A stretch of DNA of 31,365 nucleotides from Candidatus Hydrothermarchaeales archaeon (GTDB lineage: Archaea > Hydrothermarchaeota > Hydrothermarchaeia > Hydrothermarchaeales > JAZGAD01): the NCBI GenBank assembly GCA_036444275.1, contig JAZGAD010000023.1, positions 1 through 31,365 of the forward strand, written 5' to 3'. Below the pieces are notes generated by a model that saw nothing but the letters and a program-made list of their open reading frames with translations, ran no database searches and was not told the DNA's origin. Numbering within the stretch: position 1 is the first letter of the stretch; each line of letters begins with the position of its first letter. The position numbers were made by a program, and so were the translations under genes. This document shows positions 19,880 to 27,071 of the stretch, piece after piece.

Positions 19880-21403
19880 TCAGATGTCAAACCTCATGAT
19901 GGTGGTCTTTTGAGTCTGCAGATCTACTATGGGTATTCTCCCGGGAGTTGGAATCACGTTCAACTTCCTCTGAAAGGATGTTTGGTCTTGAAATGTACCA
20001 GAGTTTATCAGGAGAACACCCCGATAATTAGAAACCTCTGCGGTGTGCACATGACCTACATGGAAAATATCAGGCGTGTCCTCGATTAGCATATAATCCA
20101 TTGCTTCAGGTGCGAGGGGTACCTTTCCACCATAGACTGGACTAAGGTGTCTCTTTTTCACTAACGCGAGCATAGCCTTCGCTGGCCGCGAGTAGGACAT
20201 ATCTGGCATAGTAGATATGATGTCGTCTAGGCTTCTGCCATGATATGATAGCACGTCCACACCATGAACCATGGTATAGCAGGGGTTTCCGACCATGTGT
20301 ACTCTAGGGTCCTTGTAGAAGTCCGGTGCGAATTCCTCCATAATCGCGGGTTGGGGCTCTGCCTGACGAGCTGCATCGTGGTTCCCTGGGATGACCACTA
20401 TCTCTACGTGATCTGGCACTTGAGTAAGATAGTCAGCGAGCTTTTTGTACTGCTGGTAGATGTCCTTGATCTCTAGCTCGCTTTCTTGCCCTGGATAGAT
20501 TCCAACGCCATCCACAAGATCGCCGCCAATGATGAGGTATTTCACTCTGCCTGCGAGCTCCCGCTGCCTCGAGGTGCCCAAATCTCCTCTAAGCCACTTA
20601 ATGAATTTTAAGAAGTCCTCCTCCAAAAACTTCGTGCTCCCCATATGGATATCTGATACCAAAGCAAGGGCGAGAGGCACTTGGCTTTTCTTTAATCCAT
20701 TCTTCACAGGTACGTCAGGGAAAAAAATCTCCTTTGCTATTATTATATCGCTGTCCTTGCCGAGGTTCCCCTCCACACCTATTACCTCATCCTTCACTAA
20801 TTCCTTGGCTACTCCCTGTAACTCTCTATTGCTGTTTAAAATCAGGATGGGAATAGTAGCTGTCGGATCTTCGAGTTCAACGATCACATGCCCTTTTCTA
20901 GTCGGCTTTACTTCGTTGACCATCCCAATTATCTTTACGCCGCCCTTACTCTTCTTCATCCAATCTATAGGGGTAGCGTCCCTCAATGTATCTCTGTTCC
21001 TAAGGATCTTGGCAAGCTTATCATAGCGATCGTTGAAGTAATCCAAGAAACTCTGGAGTTTGCCCTCAGAGAAGGATTTCTTAGTGATGTCTTTATCGCG
21101 CCGTATCTCTAACTCAGCCTCGTATTCCTCAGCTAATGCTCTTTTCCTGGGCCTCTGCACTACAACTTCTTGAGTCTCCTCACCGTTTTCCTCTTCTATT
21201 TCTTTCCCATCGATTCCCGGGCTATCATAAATGGATTTAAGATATTCCAGAGTGAGTACCTCTGGTATATTCTCCCCATTCTCTGCCTCTGAGATGACTC
21301 TCTCTATACCCTCAGCGTCCCTTTTTCGGAGATATTCGAGAGCTGAGGGGTGAATGTTTATATTACTCCTTAAAAACCTGCTCAAAATTTCCATATCATC
21401 CAT
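19880..21403 (-). CDS. polB: DNA polymerase D small subunit DP1 (3'-5' exonuclease)
   Basis: OB fold followed by calcineurin-like motifs SDIH, GDLVDG, PGNHD, YHG and GHVH. Confidence 0.97.
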   Translation of the reverse strand: MDDMEILSRFLRSNINIHPSALEYLRKRDAEGIERVISEAENGENIPEVLTLEYLKSIYDSPGIDGKEIEEENGEETQEVVVQRPRKRALAEEYEAELEIRRDKDITKKSFSEGKLQSFLDYFNDRYDKLAKILRNRDTLRDATPIDWMKKSKGGVKIIGMVNEVKPTRKGHVIVELEDPTATIPILILNSNRELQGVAKELVKDEVIGVEGNLGKDSDIIIAKEIFFPDVPVKNGLKKSQVPLALALVSDIHMGSTKFLEEDFLKFIKWLRGDLGTSRQRELAGRVKYLIIGGDLVDGVGIYPGQESELEIKDIYQQYKKLADYLTQVPDHVEIVVIPGNHDAARQAEPQPAIMEEFAPDFYKDPRVHMVGNPCYTMVHGVDVLSYHGRSLDDIISTMPDMSYSRPAKAMLALVKKRHLSPVYGGKVPLAPEAMDYMLIEDTPDIFHVGHVHTAEVSNYRGVLLINSGTFQDQTSFQRKLNVIPTPGRIPIVDLQTQKTTIMRFDI

Positions 21404-21429: not shown

Positions 21430-22665
21430 TTATCTCAATCGCCGCTGGGGAAGCTGAAATTCTATGAGGTCCTTGAGCCTGATGTCATCCTCTAAAACCA
21501 GTTTTATTCCTACTGGCGGCACCTCAAGCTTGATCTCCTTAGTTCTACCGTACCTGCCCTTACTTATCACACATGAATTTAAGATGCCAAGCATATCGAG
21601 TTCAGAAATCAAGTCAGATACCCGCCTCTGGGTCAGCGTATCTAGGGAGACAGACCTGCAGAGCCTCTTATAGACATCATAAACCTCGCCAGTAGTTATC
21701 GAGCGCTCTCCTCTTTCCTCTAACAAGATAACAGAGTATAGTAGGAGCTTGCTCTGGGTAGGCAGCGTCCTGACTGCTTCCACGATGTTATCGGCCTCTA
21801 TCTTCTCGTTGGCTTTTCTAACATGGACCTCTGTGACTCTTTCCTCGTTCTCTCGCTCAGCTACCTCCCCTGATATCCTGAGCAAATCCAAGGCTTTTCT
21901 GGCATCTCCATGCTCTCTTGCAGCAAGAGCAGAGCACAGAGGTATGACAAATTCATCTAGGACGCCTGGCTTGAAAGCTAGTTCCGCCCTCTGTGTTAGG
22001 ATATCCTCTAACTGCCTCGCATTATAGGGTGAGAACACTACCTCTTCCTGTCCCAAGGAACTCTGAACCCGTGCGTCAAGGTAGTTGGTAAATTTCAGGT
22101 CATTGGATATCCCTACGATGCTTACCCTCGCGTTTTCCAATTCAGAATTCATGCGGGTTAAGTTATAGAGGACTTTGTCGCCGTCTTTGATCACGAGTTT
22201 GTCTATTTCATCCAAGAGTATTATTATCCTTTTTTTATCCTTGTCCGCAGCCTCTAATAGGGCACTGTAAACCTTGTCGGTAGGCCAACCGGTGAAGGGT
22301 ACGTTCTCGCCGAATTGTTTAGCCAAGTTCGCAAGCACGCGATACTTGGTATCTGTGGTCTCACAGTTTATGTAGACAGTAGCAACTGGCACTCCAAGTT
22401 TGACTCCTGTTTCCTTTAGCTCGTGACATATAAATTTTGAGACGATCGTTTTACCTGTACCACTCTTTCCATAAATCAAAATGTTGGATGGTGTCTCGCC
22501 TTTCAAGGCCGGAGCGAGAATGGATGCCAACTGCTTGATTTCTGCGTCTCTATGAGGCAGTTCAGTAGGCGTATAGGAATGTCTTAAGGCCTCTTTGTTA
22601 TTGAATAAAGGTTCTTTCTCAAGAATTGATTCAAATATTCCACTTAATGAAGTTTTGAAGTCCAT
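21430..22665 (-). CDS. cdc6: Orc1/Cdc6 replication initiator
   Basis: LPHRD, Walker A GKSGTGKT, Walker B LLDEID, GDARKALDLLR, C-terminal wH with ISELDMLG...GRYGRT. Confidence 0.97.
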   Translation of the reverse strand: MDFKTSLSGIFESILEKEPLFNNKEALRHSYTPTELPHRDAEIKQLASILAPALKGETPSNILIYGKSGTGKTIVSKFICHELKETGVKLGVPVATVYINCETTDTKYRVLANLAKQFGENVPFTGWPTDKVYSALLEAADKDKKRIIILLDEIDKLVIKDGDKVLYNLTRMNSELENARVSIVGISNDLKFTNYLDARVQSSLGQEEVVFSPYNARQLEDILTQRAELAFKPGVLDEFVIPLCSALAAREHGDARKALDLLRISGEVAERENEERVTEVHVRKANEKIEADNIVEAVRTLPTQSKLLLYSVILLEERGERSITTGEVYDVYKRLCRSVSLDTLTQRRVSDLISELDMLGILNSCVISKGRYGRTKEIKLEVPPVGIKLVLEDDIRLKDLIEFQLPQRRLR

Positions 22666-22696
22666 TATCTGTTTCTCCGTAAAGCGTTAACCTATG

Positions 22697-22718
22697 GTTC
22701 CACTGGAAAAATTGTAGG
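22697..22718 (+). promoter_or_regulatory. ORB element 1
   Basis: GTTCCACTGGAAAAATTGTAGG: a canonical TTCC-N3-GGAA core with a weak G-string. Confidence 0.85.
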
Positions 22719-22755
22719 TTAATTACATGCTTTAATGGTAGATAAATTCTTTAGC

Positions 22756-22770
22756 TATTTAACGTTTTTG
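22756..22770 (-). promoter_or_regulatory. Putative BRE/TATA promoter of the cdc6-polB-polC-radB operon
   Basis: Minus strand CAAAAACGTTAAATA, about 90 nt upstream of the cdc6 start. Confidence 0.5.
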
Positions 22771-22775
22771 CTACG

Positions 22776-22798
22776 CCCCCCATATCTTCCTATGGAAG
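22776..22798 (-). promoter_or_regulatory. ORB element 2
   Basis: Minus strand CTTCCATAGGAAGATATGGGGGG: core plus a G6 string. Confidence 0.85.
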
Positions 22799-22898
22799 GA
22801 TGAAAATAATTTAGACCCATAATTTGCATTACCGGGATGAAAATAGGGACAGAGCCTGATACATTTAAACTTTAACATATCAAAGAGGGAGGGAATCA

Positions 22899-22911
22899 TT
22901 TCTAATGGAAA
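22899..22911. promoter_or_regulatory. Mini-ORB-like box
   Basis: TTTCTAATGGAAA, one mismatch from TTCC-N3-GGAA; no G-string. Confidence 0.5.
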
Positions 22912-22937
22912 AAATAAATAGGAAAAGATAAGAATAA

Positions 22938-22958
22938 CCCCTTTACTTCCATTGGAGA
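22938..22958 (-). promoter_or_regulatory. ORB element 3
   Basis: Minus strand TCTCCAATGGAAGTAAAGGGG. Confidence 0.85.
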
Positions 22959-23190
22959 TATACCTTTATCAGGAGCCTTTCCCTACAAACTCTTTATTTC
23001 ATATACGATACAGTGTCATGTGAACTGCCAAATATTGGGTTTTAATTTTCTAGCCCAAATATCTCGGGATTTAATTAAATAGAAGCTTATCCAATTCAGA
23101 TTGATTTCGAAACTTATAAATATAAATATGGACAAAACAATTAATGAACTTTTTATTTAAAACATTATTGTAATAATGCTTTTATAATAA

Positions 23191-23210
23191 TTCCAAGTGA
23201 AATCAAGGGG
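23191..23210 (+). promoter_or_regulatory. ORB element 4 (degenerate core; overlaps the stop codon of the neighbouring ORF)
   Basis: TTCCAAGTGAAATCAAGGGG compared with the consensus TTCCAGTGGAAACAAAGGGG. Confidence 0.7.
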
Positions 23211-23727
23211 CCTCTCTGTATTCTAGTTTGTCTAGATAGGATTTACATTCTTGTAGTAATATGTAGATAGGATTTAGGATGCCAGAATCATAATTTTCGT
23301 AGAGCAACCTATATATCCCGTGATATTTTAATGAGAGATCAAAATATTGCATCTCTAGATTTTTTGGATCTTCGTGTAGTTGCCCAATATTTTCTTTTAA
23401 TTCTTGTATTTCTATAGTCAAATCTTCTATAAGTCTTTTCGATAAAGAATCCCAGTCGACAATATCGTGTCTCTTATTCAGACCCTCAGCGGCTAATGTT
23501 TTCCTTAATTCTAGATCTTCATCTGCTTCTAAATTTGGGCCTGGGATAAATCCTTCTTTAGAGAGAGAATTTTCTTCTGGGCGTAGCTTGAGAAGATCTC
23601 TCTTTTTTTCTAGGGCGTTGAAATTTTCTTCTAATGTTTTCTTCTTGACATCTCCAAGAATTAGCCTTATATCATCTAAAGTAACGAATTCTAATTCCTT
23701 CACTATAGACAATATTTTTCCCCTCAT
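23203..23727 (-). CDS. Hypothetical protein with probable N-terminal winged helix-turn-helix and helical C-terminus
   Basis: 174-aa ORF. RGKILSIVKELEFVTLDDIRLILGDVKKKTLEENFNALEKKRDLLKL fits a DeoR/TrmB-like wHTH spacing. It starts 9 nt after the UPF0147 stop. Confidence 0.65.
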   Translation of the reverse strand: MRGKILSIVKELEFVTLDDIRLILGDVKKKTLEENFNALEKKRDLLKLRPEENSLSKEGFIPGPNLEADEDLELRKTLAAEGLNKRHDIVDWDSLSKRLIEDLTIEIQELKENIGQLHEDPKNLEMQYFDLSLKYHGIYRLLYENYDSGILNPIYILLQECKSYLDKLEYREAP

Positions 23728-23736
23728 CTATATCAG

Positions 23737-23997
23737 CTAATCTAGCTTTATCGTCTCTAGTTCACTGGCTACATTCCAGATAAGGGTTCTAGCGTGAAGA
23801 GGAAGATTCCTATCATTGCTTATTTCCTCAAGAAGATAGATGGCTGAGCTCACCCGAACTCCAATATCTTGGCTTGTGTCGAGGAGGGTATTCTTAGCTT
23901 CGTCAGCCGACCTCCGAATATTTCTCGGTATAGAGGTATCACGAGTTACCGGCTCCAAGACACTGGCGATTTCTTCCATCTTTTTGTTCTCCTCCAT
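23737..23997 (-). CDS. UPF0147 family protein (probable start 23997)
   Basis: DTSIPRNIRRSA...AIYLLEEISNDRNLPLHARTLIWNVASELE; GGAGGT RBS before ATG 23997. Confidence 0.92.
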   Translation of the reverse strand: MEENKKMEEIASVLEPVTRDTSIPRNIRRSADEAKNTLLDTSQDIGVRVSSAIYLLEEISNDRNLPLHARTLIWNVASELETIKLD

Positions 23998-24054
23998 GAG
24001 TAATACCTCCATGACGCTAAATTTAAAAACCTACGGTCTATAAAAGTCTATTGT

Positions 24055-24384
24055 ATGAAAGCGAATTCTGAAGAGGCATTGAAGGGTATGGCTGAGTTGC
24101 TCTTGAGCAAGGCGAAGATGTTGCAGTATCACTGTGATACCTGCAAGTCCCCCCTATTCAAGAAAGAGGGTAAGATTATTTGCCCAATTTGTGGTGAATT
24201 CAAGAAGCGAGAGGAAACAGACAAAGTAAAGAAACCTAAAGTCGACGAGAGACTTCGAGCTACCTTGCAGAAGAAGCGAGAAGAGTTATTGAAGAGGTTG
24301 GAAGAAGAGAAGAAGCCAGAAGAGATATCAGCTCTATTAGATGCGATAGCGAAAATCGATGGAATGCTCGCTGGCGAAGTGTAA
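24055..24384 (+). CDS. UPF0148 / Sjogren's syndrome autoantigen p27-like Zn-finger protein
   Basis: MAELLLSKAKMLQYHCDTCKSPLF...IICPIC plus a coiled C-terminus; divergent from UPF0147. Confidence 0.88.
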   Translation: MKANSEEALKGMAELLLSKAKMLQYHCDTCKSPLFKKEGKIICPICGEFKKREETDKVKKPKVDERLRATLQKKREELLKRLEEEKKPEEISALLDAIAKIDGMLAGEV

Positions 24385-24424
24385 CCAAAGGTTAACACAT
24401 TTTTGATTGCTTACCTTTGCGCTA

Positions 24425-26104
24425 TTATCTTAGTTCATCGAGTAATTTCGGCAGCTTCCCAATTTTTACTCTTACCTGTTTCATGCTGTCTCTTTCTCTT
24501 ACGGTTACACTATCATCCTTCAGGGTATCAAAATCCACGGTGACTGCGAATGGCACGCCTATCTCATCTACTCGCGAGTAACGCCTGCCTATAGTATCTG
24601 AGCCGTCATAAATTACATAGAAGCCTAGGCTTTTTAATTCATTCAAAATCTTTAAGGCTACTGCGTTTAGTTCATCCTTAGACACCAAAGGAAAGACCCC
24701 AATGTCTATTGGGGCTATATTGGTCTTAAAACTCATTACTTTTCTATCATCCCGCTCGGTGTAGGCTTTCTCTAACAGACAGTATAAAATGCGATCTATC
24801 CCATAGGAGGGCTCTATCACATGTGGAGTAATTTTCTCTCCATGGACCTTCTCCTCCACCTGTTTTAACTCGATAGACTCTGACCCTAACTTGATCTTCT
24901 CTCCTTTTACTTGCAACTCTAGGAATCCCTTCTCTTCAAAGAAGTCCATGTCTTCATTGCTTGCGTCTCTCAAATTTTGAACAATCTCTGTCGCTCTTTC
25001 TTTGAATTCTTTTCCTATCCTCGCCATCTTCGGTGTCAGCATCCGCTTCTTGACTATTTTAGGCACTTCGTACTGGATGAAGGCATTTAACTCAACACCG
25101 CTGTGCTTCTCATGAGATATTAAATCATAGTTCGTTCTGTCTGCAATACCAACTACTTCGATCCATCCGAAGCGTTCTGTTTGGATCTCAGCATCCCAGC
25201 AATCTGCAGCGTAGTGCGCTATCTCGCTTTTAAGGTGTTGTCTGAACCTCAGGTCTTCTTTCGGCAGGCCTATTCCTTCCAAGAATCTATTGATCAAGAC
25301 GATGTGATAGCAGAGGAGTTCGTGAGCTACTAATCCGTCTTTTACGGCATCTTCGGCCGTAACCCTAACTTCTGCAGCATCCTGAGGGACTAAGCGTAGC
25401 TTCTCCTTTGCGTATCTAGCGAAATCCGGGTGGGTCTTCTCATCCGGATGAACAAATACTTCGACCTCAGCTTGGGAGAATTCCCTTAGCCTTATCACTC
25501 CTTGCCTCGGCGAGATCTCGTTGCGGTATGCACGTCCTAGCTGGGCTACCCCGAAAGGGAGCTTCTTCCGATGAAAGGCATACAGACGGTTGAAGAGTGT
25601 GAACATCCCTTGAGCGGTTTCAGGCCGCAAATACCCAACAGTCTTGCTCCCTGGGCCTATGTGGGTCTTGAACATTAGGTTATAGCTCCAGACCTCGCCA
25701 AGTTTTCCACTACAGTCTAGGCATTTTATATCATTTCCCTTGATTAGCTTGTTTAATCCTTCAAAGGAGTGCCCTGTAACCGTCTCCCCCGTTTTTGCCT
25801 CTATGAGTTGATCTGCCTTATACACCTCCTTGCATTTCTCGCACTCAACCATTGGATCGATGAAATTTTTTACATGACCAGAAGCAACGAATACATCCTC
25901 AGGAGCTATTGTTGGAGTTGATATCTCTAGGAAGCCTTGTTCCACACAGTATAATCTCCTCCACTCATCCTCTATTTTCTTCTTGAGCATCGCTCCTAGT
26001 GGACCATAGTCGTAGAAGCCGCTGGTGCCACCGTAAATCTCATAGGAGGGCCAGAGAAAGCCTCTACGCAGCGCCAACTCCATTACTTTTTCGTGTTTGT
26101 CCAT
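24425..26104 (-). CDS. glyS: Glycine--tRNA ligase (alpha2 type; probable ATG start 26104)
   Basis: RRGF...YDYGPLG, YLRPETAQG, RNEISPRQGVIRLREFSQAE, HVIEPSYGIDR, IGRRY.R.DEIG. Confidence 0.97.
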   Translation of the reverse strand: MDKHEKVMELALRRGFLWPSYEIYGGTSGFYDYGPLGAMLKKKIEDEWRRLYCVEQGFLEISTPTIAPEDVFVASGHVKNFIDPMVECEKCKEVYKADQLIEAKTGETVTGHSFEGLNKLIKGNDIKCLDCSGKLGEVWSYNLMFKTHIGPGSKTVGYLRPETAQGMFTLFNRLYAFHRKKLPFGVAQLGRAYRNEISPRQGVIRLREFSQAEVEVFVHPDEKTHPDFARYAKEKLRLVPQDAAEVRVTAEDAVKDGLVAHELLCYHIVLINRFLEGIGLPKEDLRFRQHLKSEIAHYAADCWDAEIQTERFGWIEVVGIADRTNYDLISHEKHSGVELNAFIQYEVPKIVKKRMLTPKMARIGKEFKERATEIVQNLRDASNEDMDFFEEKGFLELQVKGEKIKLGSESIELKQVEEKVHGEKITPHVIEPSYGIDRILYCLLEKAYTERDDRKVMSFKTNIAPIDIGVFPLVSKDELNAVALKILNELKSLGFYVIYDGSDTIGRRYSRVDEIGVPFAVTVDFDTLKDDSVTVRERDSMKQVRVKIGKLPKLLDELR

Positions 26105-26240
26105 ATTCAAAGCCTTTCTATTGCGATATGAACTCTTGTTCCTTAAATATTTCTGCTACAGTTCCAAGGACCGAATAGCCTCATATAAATCTCATAGATG
26201 CAATATTCACACATCCGCAAAATGAGCAGGGGGAGAATAA

Positions 26241-27071
26241 TTAGAAGGCCTTTAGGAGGTCTATGTCTCTGACCAGTCCTATTATATTCCCTTCAGCATC
26301 AATAACTGGCACTTGCTCTACCCGCGCTTTTGCCATCTTCTTGGCGCAGTCACTCGTTGTTGTCTTTTTAGTTGCTGTTATCACATTGGGGACCATGATT
26401 TCTTCCACTGTTAAATCAGGGAGCTCCAGTGTCTTCTTTGTTATATAGATGACGTTCTTGCTGTCCCAGCCCCACTTATCACCCTCCATAGCAGCTGCGA
26501 GTTCAGATTTCTGGGTAGACTCTGTCACTTGCGCCACCTTCAAGAGGTCAGTATTAGCAACTATCCCCACTAGCATCCCCTCACTATTGAGTACTGGGAA
26601 GGCTCTGAATCCAGCGAGATGCATGAGTTCGTAGGCCACCTTGATGGGAGTGCCCTCCCAGACAGCGGTTACGCTTTTCCGTAGGTATTTGCCAACAGGA
26701 GTGCTTATCCCCATCTTTCCAATAGCCCTGCCGATAAGATCATTAACTGTTAATATCCCGAGGACTTCTCCATCCTTCACCACCGGCATCCTTCTAAATT
26801 TCTTCTTCAGGAAGAGCTTAGCCGCCTCTTCCACGTTAGCCTCAGGCGATATAGCGACTACCTCTCTGGTCATGAGGAGTGCCAGCTGGGTCTCTTCAGG
26901 ATGCTCCGAGAAGTCGTCTCTAGTTATTATACCTAAAAGTTCCTTGCTCCCTCTCTTCACTACTGGCATGCCTGAGATATTCTTCTTTATAATGAGCTCC
27001 AATGCCTCAGCTACGCTACCCGGAACCTCAGCATATACTACCTCCTTCGTCATAATGTCCTTTACTTGCAT
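26241..27071 (-). CDS. Four-CBS-domain protein
   Basis: Four CBS repeats (ISGMPVV, FRRMPVV, FRAFPVL, VEQVPVI) with a conserved DKWGWDS insert. Confidence 0.92.
   Translation of the reverse strand: MQVKDIMTKEVVYAEVPGSVAEALELIIKKNISGMPVVKRGSKELLGIITRDDFSEHPEETQLALLMTREVVAISPEANVEEAAKLFLKKKFRRMPVVKDGEVLGILTVNDLIGRAIGKMGISTPVGKYLRKSVTAVWEGTPIKVAYELMHLAGFRAFPVLNSEGMLVGIVANTDLLKVAQVTESTQKSELAAAMEGDKWGWDSKNVIYITKKTLELPDLTVEEIMVPNVITATKKTTTSDCAKKMAKARVEQVPVIDAEGNIIGLVRDIDLLKAF

Follow-up and report, generated by a model that had tools for sequence, protein, structure and literature searches.

ORF174, a winged-helix protein encoded beside a Hydrothermarchaeota replication origin, as a candidate partner of UPF0147

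Introduction

Winged-helix proteins are known to be encoded beside archaeal replication origins (oriC), as with the Orc1/Cdc6 initiators and the WhiP/Cdt1-like proteins (excerpt of PMC4010727), and the origin recognition box (ORB) has TTCC and GAA as its core motifs in Pyrococcus (excerpt of PMC1904270). Haloarchaeal Oap genes were noticed only for their place next to oriC, and one of their products, OapA, drives vesicle formation (excerpt of PMC10927574), which is a warning against inferring function from position. Here, we analysed a stretch of 31,365 nucleotides (nt) from a Candidatus Hydrothermarchaeales archaeon (contig JAZGAD010000023.1; the whole stretch is called the window below) and, in particular, ORF174, its open reading frame (ORF) of 174 amino acids (aa) that lies next to an oriC and had been put forward in an earlier note on this DNA as an origin-associated factor. 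Our results point to ORF174 as a trans-acting partner of UPF0147, which is encoded directly upstream, with the role of a regulator being somewhat likelier than that of a pure adaptor; we give the general reading as a partner a probability of about 0.55.

Results

ORF174 as the second cistron of the UPF0147 operon

The two genes in question are placed in the window as follows.

23203-23727, minus strand: ORF174 coding sequence, 174 aa plus TGA, a new, narrowly distributed family
23737-24012, minus strand: UPF0147, first cistron of the operon (PF03685, E 4.4e-31; NCBIfam PRK04330 and SRE_fam)

ORF174 starts with the ATG at 23725-23727 and stops with the TGA at 23203-23205 ('tca' on the plus strand), and these coordinates, together with a GC content of 0.28-0.37 as against 0.41-0.53 in the flanking genes (300-nt windows), confirm the AT-rich ORF of 174 aa that had been reported from the sequence. 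ORF174 was matched in 22 of the 35 genomes of the order, and its dN/dS, calculated by the Nei-Gojobori method for the nine pairs for which dS could be estimated, was 0.14-0.23. Among 1.84 billion (1.84e9) representatives, there were 24 ORF174 clusters, all 89-195 aa long, indicating that there are no fused forms. A profile search of a 5.8-billion collection returned eight proteins, all of them already known, and no wider relatives, and a sequence-profile search of the PDB gave nothing below E 0.39. No family of Pfam (zero families at E<=1), NCBIfam, PADLOC or PHROG matched ORF174, in agreement with its earlier description as an orphan, and no Pfam family matched more than one of the 25 members scanned. 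One relative is annotated as 'hypothetical protein'. We conclude that ORF174 is a real protein restricted to Hydrothermarchaeota. Its folds are known ones, but neither the family nor the pairing with UPF0147 has been described. The present analysis thus defines a previously unnamed family of two ordinary folds in a new pairing, belonging to one uncultured archaeal phylum and annotated only as hypothetical.

UPF0147 was found directly upstream of ORF174 in every one of the 21 loci compared. Stop and start share four nt (ATGA) in 13 of these loci and a single nt in two, and the other six have a gap of 4-22 nt (9 nt in the window). The coupling to UPF0147 that had been proposed is thus borne out, with overlapping start and stop codons in 15/21 loci. 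Furthermore, there was no terminator-like site between UPF0147 and ORF174 or before the ORB, and co-transcription of the two genes, also part of the earlier description, is consistent with the sequence in view of the short gap in the window and the adjacency in 21/21 loci. None of the 22 genomes had ORF174 without UPF0147; UPF0147 occurred without ORF174 in four genomes of the order (G024, G028, G032 and G033) and in all 70 loci examined from other phyla. UPF0147 is far more constrained than ORF174, with a dN/dS of 0.00-0.12, and its mean column identity is 73%, compared with 40% for ORF174. The lower constraint and identity suggest that ORF174 is the younger, faster-evolving accessory of the two.

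UPF0147 itself is spread across archaeal phyla (578 confirmed stretches), has relatives in the PDB (2qzg and 2qsb), and is matched by a viral PHROG family that has no assigned function (phrog_32150, E 9.6e-20). Its NCBIfam label is 'stationary phase-response protein' (SRE_fam), and our literature search found nothing relevant on UPF0147 or on this label or its variants. A complex prediction for UPF0147 with ORF174 from two alignments, run without controls, gave no answer (score 0.00 against a mark of 0.32) and speaks neither for nor against a complex. In Thermoplasmatota/Methanomassiliicoccales, UPF0147 was preceded by a same-strand gene in 25 of 70 loci (L082-L151), the product being about 105-205 aa long and the gene lying 20-60 nt upstream in most of them. 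The one member scanned (L084:3613-3966) had a Lrp/AsnC ligand-binding domain only (PF01037, E 1.5e-15), indicating that UPF0147 keeps company with regulator modules. Thus, UPF0147, a widespread family without an assigned function, gains its first consistent partner, and ORF174 and the Lrp/AsnC-domain neighbour in Thermoplasmatota point to a regulatory setting for it.

An exact 13-nt direct repeat, TAGATAGGATTTA, was also observed in the 3' part of ORF174 (23233-23245 and 23264-23276), the two copies being 31 nt apart and read in different frames. Across the loci L021-L038, the GC content of origin-adjacent ORF174 copies was 4-13 points under that of their own locus, and that of copies off the origin ranged from 4 points below to 5 above.

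Predicted fold of ORF174

An AlphaFold2 (AF2) model was built on an alignment of 25 sequences and reached a mean pLDDT of 92.7 and a pTM of 0.83. It divides ORF174 into the following parts.

23530-23727, minus strand: winged helix-turn-helix domain, residues 1-66 (AF2)
Residues 2-12, 17-24 and 29-41 of this head: helices; residues 45-48 and 59-62: wing strands (AF2)
Residues 72-80: short helix (AF2)
23218-23454, minus strand: three-helix bundle, residues 92-170, with the most conserved motif of the family (AF2)
23206-23217, minus strand: C-terminal tail R-E-A-P, codons 171-174, encoded by the ORB G-string and its extension

The three helices and two-stranded hairpin wing of a winged helix-turn-helix are present in the model, and residues 1-80 aligned by VIA-align with a Z of 8.3-9.6 to HxlR, QsrR, MarR, YtfH and ArsR-type regulators, and also to BigR and RosR. 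The winged-helix call, which had been made by eye, is therefore confirmed by the model and by these solved structures. By Foldseek, the head matched HxlR 7bzd with a probability of 0.96 and IdeR 4o6j with an rmsd of 1.5 A over 68 residues; the Foldseek searches against PDB and BFVD gave no match at E<=0.001. The helical C-terminus described earlier takes the form of the three-helix bundle, with helices at residues 92-116, 121-145 and 148-172 and with P121, Y128, F129, Y135 and H136 making up the most conserved motif of the family. The bundle matched spectrin repeats, BAG, GAT, TBCC-N, CorA cytosolic domains and designed bundles with a Z of 9-10.5, which is below the level of about 13 that the tool requires for helical bundles, and because such matches are generic, they name no function. 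The last block of the model had a mean pLDDT of 47, and the R-E-A-P tail is accordingly at low model confidence.

Linkage of ORF174 to the origin among relatives

The origin beside ORF174 consists of the following features.

21430-22665, minus strand: Orc1/Cdc6 initiator, on the far side of the origin (Pfam Cdc6_C 2.2e-34 and Cdc6_lid 1.2e-29)
From 22666, between Cdc6 and ORF174: AT-rich oriC spacer of 537 nt
22698-22709, 22787-22798, 22900-22911 and 22947-22958: further ORB dyads, with G/C-string partners
22666-23190: the oriC intergenic region apart from the outermost ORB, GC 0.28-0.33
23191-23216, plus strand: outermost ORB, with the dyad TTCCAAGTGAAAT (23191-23203), CAA, GGGG (23207-23210) and CCTCTC

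The earlier note had tied its proposal to homologs that always flank oriC and cdc6 and had named unlinked homologs as a refutation. Cdc6 followed ORF174 across an AT-rich spacer in only 9/21 loci. In 10/21, a convergent gene lay within a few bases of the ORF174 stop, and there was no Cdc6 in up to 6 kb; in the other two loci, the contig breaks off within AT-rich sequence. In genome G007, a distance of about 196 kb on a single contig separates ORF174 from the orthologous Cdc6. For the two pairs linked to the origin, the dN/dS was 0.14-0.16, and for the seven without such linkage it was 0.14-0.23; purifying selection is the same in origin-linked and unlinked lineages.

The gene was also found to decay or to be missing where the origin persists. 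In G025 (L055:1-1003), the interval from UPF0147 to the origin holds an ORF174 pseudogene, which can be recognised over most of its extent but is interrupted by several in-frame stops and a frameshift; the start of Cdc6 is located at the end of the contig. Its congener G024 has lost ORF174 altogether, and in both genomes the ORB origin is retained beside UPF0147 and Cdc6. In G028, G032 and G033, Cdc6 with ORBs is kept, UPF0147 is located elsewhere, and there is no ORF174. Eight genomes with neither ORF174 nor UPF0147 were considered as true losses and rejected as such, the origin flank being unassembled: in seven of them, the contig with Cdc6 breaks off no more than 260 nt from the start of that gene or within it, and the eighth yielded no Cdc6.

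Assemblies of the order often break inside the AT-rich origin (G002, G003, G012, G013, G017, G018, G019, G025, G026 and G027), with the broken Cdc6 contigs ending 52-260 nt upstream of Cdc6 or cutting the gene itself, and genes beside the origin are consequently under-counted in those genomes.

Neither the window protein nor the 25 members showed similarity to the Cdc6_C, Cdc6_lid, Cdt1 or WhiP families of Pfam, and no homology to the winged-helix or AAA+ modules of Cdc6/Cdt1 was found; MCM4_WHD matched one of the 25 with E 0.019, which is under any threshold. No initiator was among the top matches listed in the fold searches with ORF174. The proposal of an origin-associated factor is not supported, with homologs that are unlinked in 10/21 loci and equally constrained there, and with the gene absent or decayed in lineages in which UPF0147 and the ORB origin persist. 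A trans-acting role at the origin is conceivable; judging from the genomes compared, its genomic support is gone.

The ORB and the end of the ORF174 gene

The earlier observation that the last codons and the TGA of ORF174 lie inside an ORB was confirmed, with the dyad at 23191-23203 and the G-string at 23207-23210 on either side of the stop codon and codons 171-174 reading through the G-string. In the window, GAAANNNRGGGG had one match against 0.62 expected, and TTCCANTGGAAA with at most two mismatches had 18 strand matches against 11.8 expected, neither being beyond chance. Nine of these 18 matches cluster in 22697-23202, and the clustering and conservation of the ORBs are beyond chance, although the pattern alone is not. 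The five dyad sites lie within 22697-23203, showing the TTCC...GAA core, the G-string and the clustering around an AT-rich stretch by cdc6 that characterise ORBs, and the window outer ORB resembles the Pyrococcus ORB1 and ORB2 oligonucleotides as printed in the excerpt of PMC1904270. The most AT-rich part of oriC extends from about 22960 to 23190. The C-string of the dyad at 22947-22958 is on the other flank, so that this dyad forms with the outer ORB an inverted pair around this stretch. Our literature search found nothing on Hydrothermarchaeota replication origins, and the present analysis maps a well-formed one, in which there are five ORB dyads, the outer pair is inverted and the extension of the G-string is conserved.

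In nine related genomes, the origin ends at the corresponding place with the same element, in which the dyad is followed by 2-3 bases, GGGG and T(C/G)TC. The dyad and G-string were also present at three origins without an adjoining ORF174 (L067, L153 and L154). In L067, ORF174 is absent and UPF0147 itself faces the ORB. In L153 (3339-4229) and L154, from G007 and G011, the same outer ORB is found at a Cdc6 origin whose neighbour is not the UPF0147 operon but a HerA helicase gene (DUF87 7.7e-35, HAS-barrel) in divergent orientation. The ORB is an origin feature independent of the ORF174 gene.

The overlap itself can be traced by comparison with relatives. The stop-to-G-string distance is 0-18 nt in all nine origin-linked loci; in the origin-linked relatives, the ORF174 stop is 5-18 nt outside the GGGG, and most relatives' proteins end in ...LEY (also ...LDF and alike). 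In the clade of the window, the TAG after ...LEY is missing, and the frame runs four extra codons to the TGA, an x-x-[TA]-P tail being present in only 5/25 aligned members. The overlap with the ORB has arisen because the TAG was lost in this clade and four codons were added, and it is a matter of genome compaction and a lost stop, not a sign of function.

A near-palindromic motif, ATTATTGTAATA, was observed 15-25 nt inside the outer ORB in the window (23164-23175) and in G007. It occurs twice in G030, 14 and 46 nt inside the outer ORB (L169, L153 compared), and variants of ATTATTATAATA occur farther from the ORB in G023 and G015. The ATTATTGTAATA motif may be merely AT-rich sequence of the DNA-unwinding element (DUE).

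Wider gene neighbourhood

The gene neighbourhood is that of a textbook euryarchaeal origin region, with the following further genes.

19880-21403, minus strand: small subunit of PolD
24055-24384, plus strand: p27-type zinc-ribbon gene (PF06677, 8.7e-13)
24425-26110, minus strand: GlyRS, named by eye from the translation
26241-27071, minus strand: CBS-domain gene, named by eye from the translation

The p27-type gene is divergent from UPF0147, separated from it by a 42-nt spacer (24013-24054), and adjoins UPF0147 in 18/20 related loci. By eye, the 25 UPF0147/p27 spacers contained TATA-like boxes and a GGAGGTG ribosome-binding site. In one family of the order (L030-L038), the leader of UPF0147 exceeds that of the window by about 60 nt. 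Immediately ahead of the ribosome-binding site, it has an inverted repeat and then a T-run, possibly a leader hairpin, which the window lacks. An Rfam scan of 22000-24600 gave only a sub-threshold snoRNA-like match, inside the p27 gene. The genome of the window also has a second, distant Orc1/Cdc6 paralog on another contig (G000:C49:5439-6503; 29% identity, E 7e-48), as do G007 and G021, which may be a sign of a second origin.

Discussion

The reading that we favour is that ORF174, as the second, translationally coupled cistron of the UPF0147 operon, would act in trans with or for UPF0147. It would do so with a MarR/HxlR-like winged-helix head and a three-helix-bundle tail, a layout like that of two-domain PadR proteins. 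ORF174 could be a small, probably dimeric, DNA-binding regulator of the UPF0147 module or, as the other option, an adaptor that uses its bundle to hold a partner. In this reading, the position beside oriC would be a matter of inherited gene order and not a functional requirement. Most of the 25 members, inspected by eye, have basic residues (V-K/R-K/R-K/R-T) at the N-terminal start of helix 3, and these are compatible with a nucleic-acid contact.

Several observations weigh against such a role. The family is acidic: 19 of the 25 members have a whole-protein pI of 4.7-5.5, and 16 have a zero or negative net charge over residues 1-66. The wing tip carries a conserved acidic P-x-E-N-S motif (by eye), which would fit a protein-binding winged helix better than a DNA-binding one. 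No regulator family of Pfam matched the protein from the window. In the 25 UPF0147/p27 spacers, which were inspected by eye and not with a motif-discovery program, we saw no palindrome shared by the whole order. That ORF174 binds DNA or UPF0147, dimerises and has a regulatory role is something that we only infer. Finally, the adjacency to the origin, which is found in most families of the order, is probably ancestral, and the ancestor may have had a link to the origin.

The acidic pI, the zero or negative charge of the head in most members and the acidic wing tip would also suit a pure adaptor, in which the winged helix would serve protein-protein contacts, like those of RPC34/RPC6, kleisin and ESCRT-II, and ORF174 is a non-DNA-binding subunit of a UPF0147 complex. 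It was indeed with a human Pol III subunit (9fso_F, first winged helix) that the head gave its lowest rmsd, 1.2 A over 59 residues at a Z of 9.0, and translational coupling is typical of complex subunits. However, the structures closest to the head belong mostly to regulators that bind DNA, several of which were determined in complex with it (7bzg, 4hqe and 5h3r), and the basic start of helix 3 is mostly conserved, so that we regard a pure adaptor as rather unlikely. An origin accessory factor, which would bind origin DNA or Orc1/Cdc6/MCM in trans and modulate initiation, with its gene kept near oriC where possible, is unlikely. The operon does abut the outermost ORB and is transcribed toward it in 9/21 loci over most families of the order, the two further loci that end at contig breaks do so in AT-rich sequence, and the winged helix is the fold used by Orc1/Cdc6 and WhiP (excerpt of PMC4010727). 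Nevertheless, the unlinked homologs in 10/21 loci are equally constrained; ORF174 is deleted in G024, a pseudogene in G025 and absent from G028, G032 and G033 despite the presence of Cdc6 and ORBs; the protein is acidic and has no sequence similarity to the Cdc6_C, Cdt1 and WhiP families; and haloarchaeal OapA, also named by position, is a vesiculation GTPase (excerpt of PMC10927574). An extended form of this idea, in which UPF0147-ORF174 is an undescribed origin-proximal control module of Hydrothermarchaeota, is quite improbable. In it, ORF174 would bind the outer ORB/DUE or Orc1/Cdc6 via its winged helix, the operon reading into the ORB would couple initiator occupancy with expression of the module, and the control would have been rewired wherever the gene was moved or lost. 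If true, it would represent a new archaeal origin-control factor, which the evidence makes unlikely.

Transcription of the operon into the outer ORB might matter more than the protein, with occupancy of the ORB and read-through influencing each other. In Escherichia coli, transcription of mioC reads into oriC, which is a parallel for such read-through. Consistent with this, no terminator-like site was found from the stop to the ORB, the stop is 0-18 nt from the G-string in all nine origin-linked loci, and the orientation toward the origin is conserved even in L067, where it is UPF0147 that faces the ORB. Conserved orientation, however, follows from conserved gene order alone, and the arrangement has been abandoned in half of the lineages, so that we consider this explanation very unlikely. 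It is hardly credible, finally, that the two genes form a toxin-antitoxin, defence or mobile-element cassette. The small size of the two genes, the overlap between the stop of one and the start of the other, the patchy presence of ORF174, the match of UPF0147 to the viral phrog_32150 and a weak, sub-threshold match of UPF0147 to RelB (E 0.035) would be in keeping with a cassette, but neither ORF174 nor UPF0147 had a PADLOC match, UPF0147 is conserved over archaeal phyla with a low dN/dS (0.00-0.12) and a fixed chromosomal context, and the fold of ORF174 is not toxin-like.

Among known systems, the regulators of the MarR/HxlR (DUF24)/ArsR type (7kd3, 7bzg, 4hqe, 3voe, 1yyv and 6ez1) share with residues 1-80 of ORF174 the same topology of three helices and a beta-hairpin wing, the alignments (Z 8.3-9.6) covering 64-78 residues. 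ORF174 differs from MarR/HxlR in that the dimerisation helices flanking the winged helix are missing, with the head starting at residue 1, and in that it has an acidic wing tip and a separate three-helix bundle after the head. It does not belong to the MarR, PadR, HxlR or ArsR families of Pfam, Penicillinase_R matching 1/25 members with E 0.099. Two-domain PadR proteins (Bacillus subtilis PadR 5x11, BC1756 6jyi and VanR 5z7b) are of the same size, 165-196 aa, and have the same order of an N-terminal winged helix and a C-terminal helical domain, which in PadR mediates dimerisation. They were among the few near full-length Foldseek alignments (183-195 columns), but the matches were weak (E 0.08-0.26, TM 0.25-0.29 and rmsd 15-18 A), and there was no Pfam match to PadR. 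The nearest predicted structure in the ESM Atlas to the Atlas model of ORF174 was Pfam DUF7109 (PF23421), a haloarchaeal family of about 184 aa, with a TM of 0.51 over residues 1-171, and DUF7109 also came up for the C-terminal part, with a TM of 0.76. Kinship with DUF7109 is a structural lead, unconfirmed by sequence models: its HMM was over the 27-bit cut-off in none of the 35 genomes of the order and matched nothing in five genomes of other phyla, 1/25 members matched it with E 0.022, and our literature search found nothing on DUF7109.

Compared with the proteins encoded beside described archaeal origins, ORF174 is like WhiP/Cdt1-like proteins and Orc1/Cdc6 in its winged helix and location, but it has one winged helix and a bundle, no AAA+ module and no sequence similarity to them. 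Unlike an initiator, it is origin-unlinked in 10/21 loci, and the origin in the window has its own adjacent Cdc6. The Oap proteins, whose genes ORF174 resembles in having been noticed for their place, are unrelated to it, being a GTPase (OapA, which is ArvA), DUF2073 and DUF2072. As for the gene end, ORBs that overlap a protein-coding gene next to cdc6, as here, are described at Pyrococcus dp1, and a whole cluster of an ORB and mini-ORBs lies inside the polymerase gene in Pyrococcus (excerpt of PMC1904270). The window differs from dp1 in that a single ORB covers a stop codon and four codons, in this clade only, and the loss of a TAG provides a concrete route by which a gene end enters an ORB.

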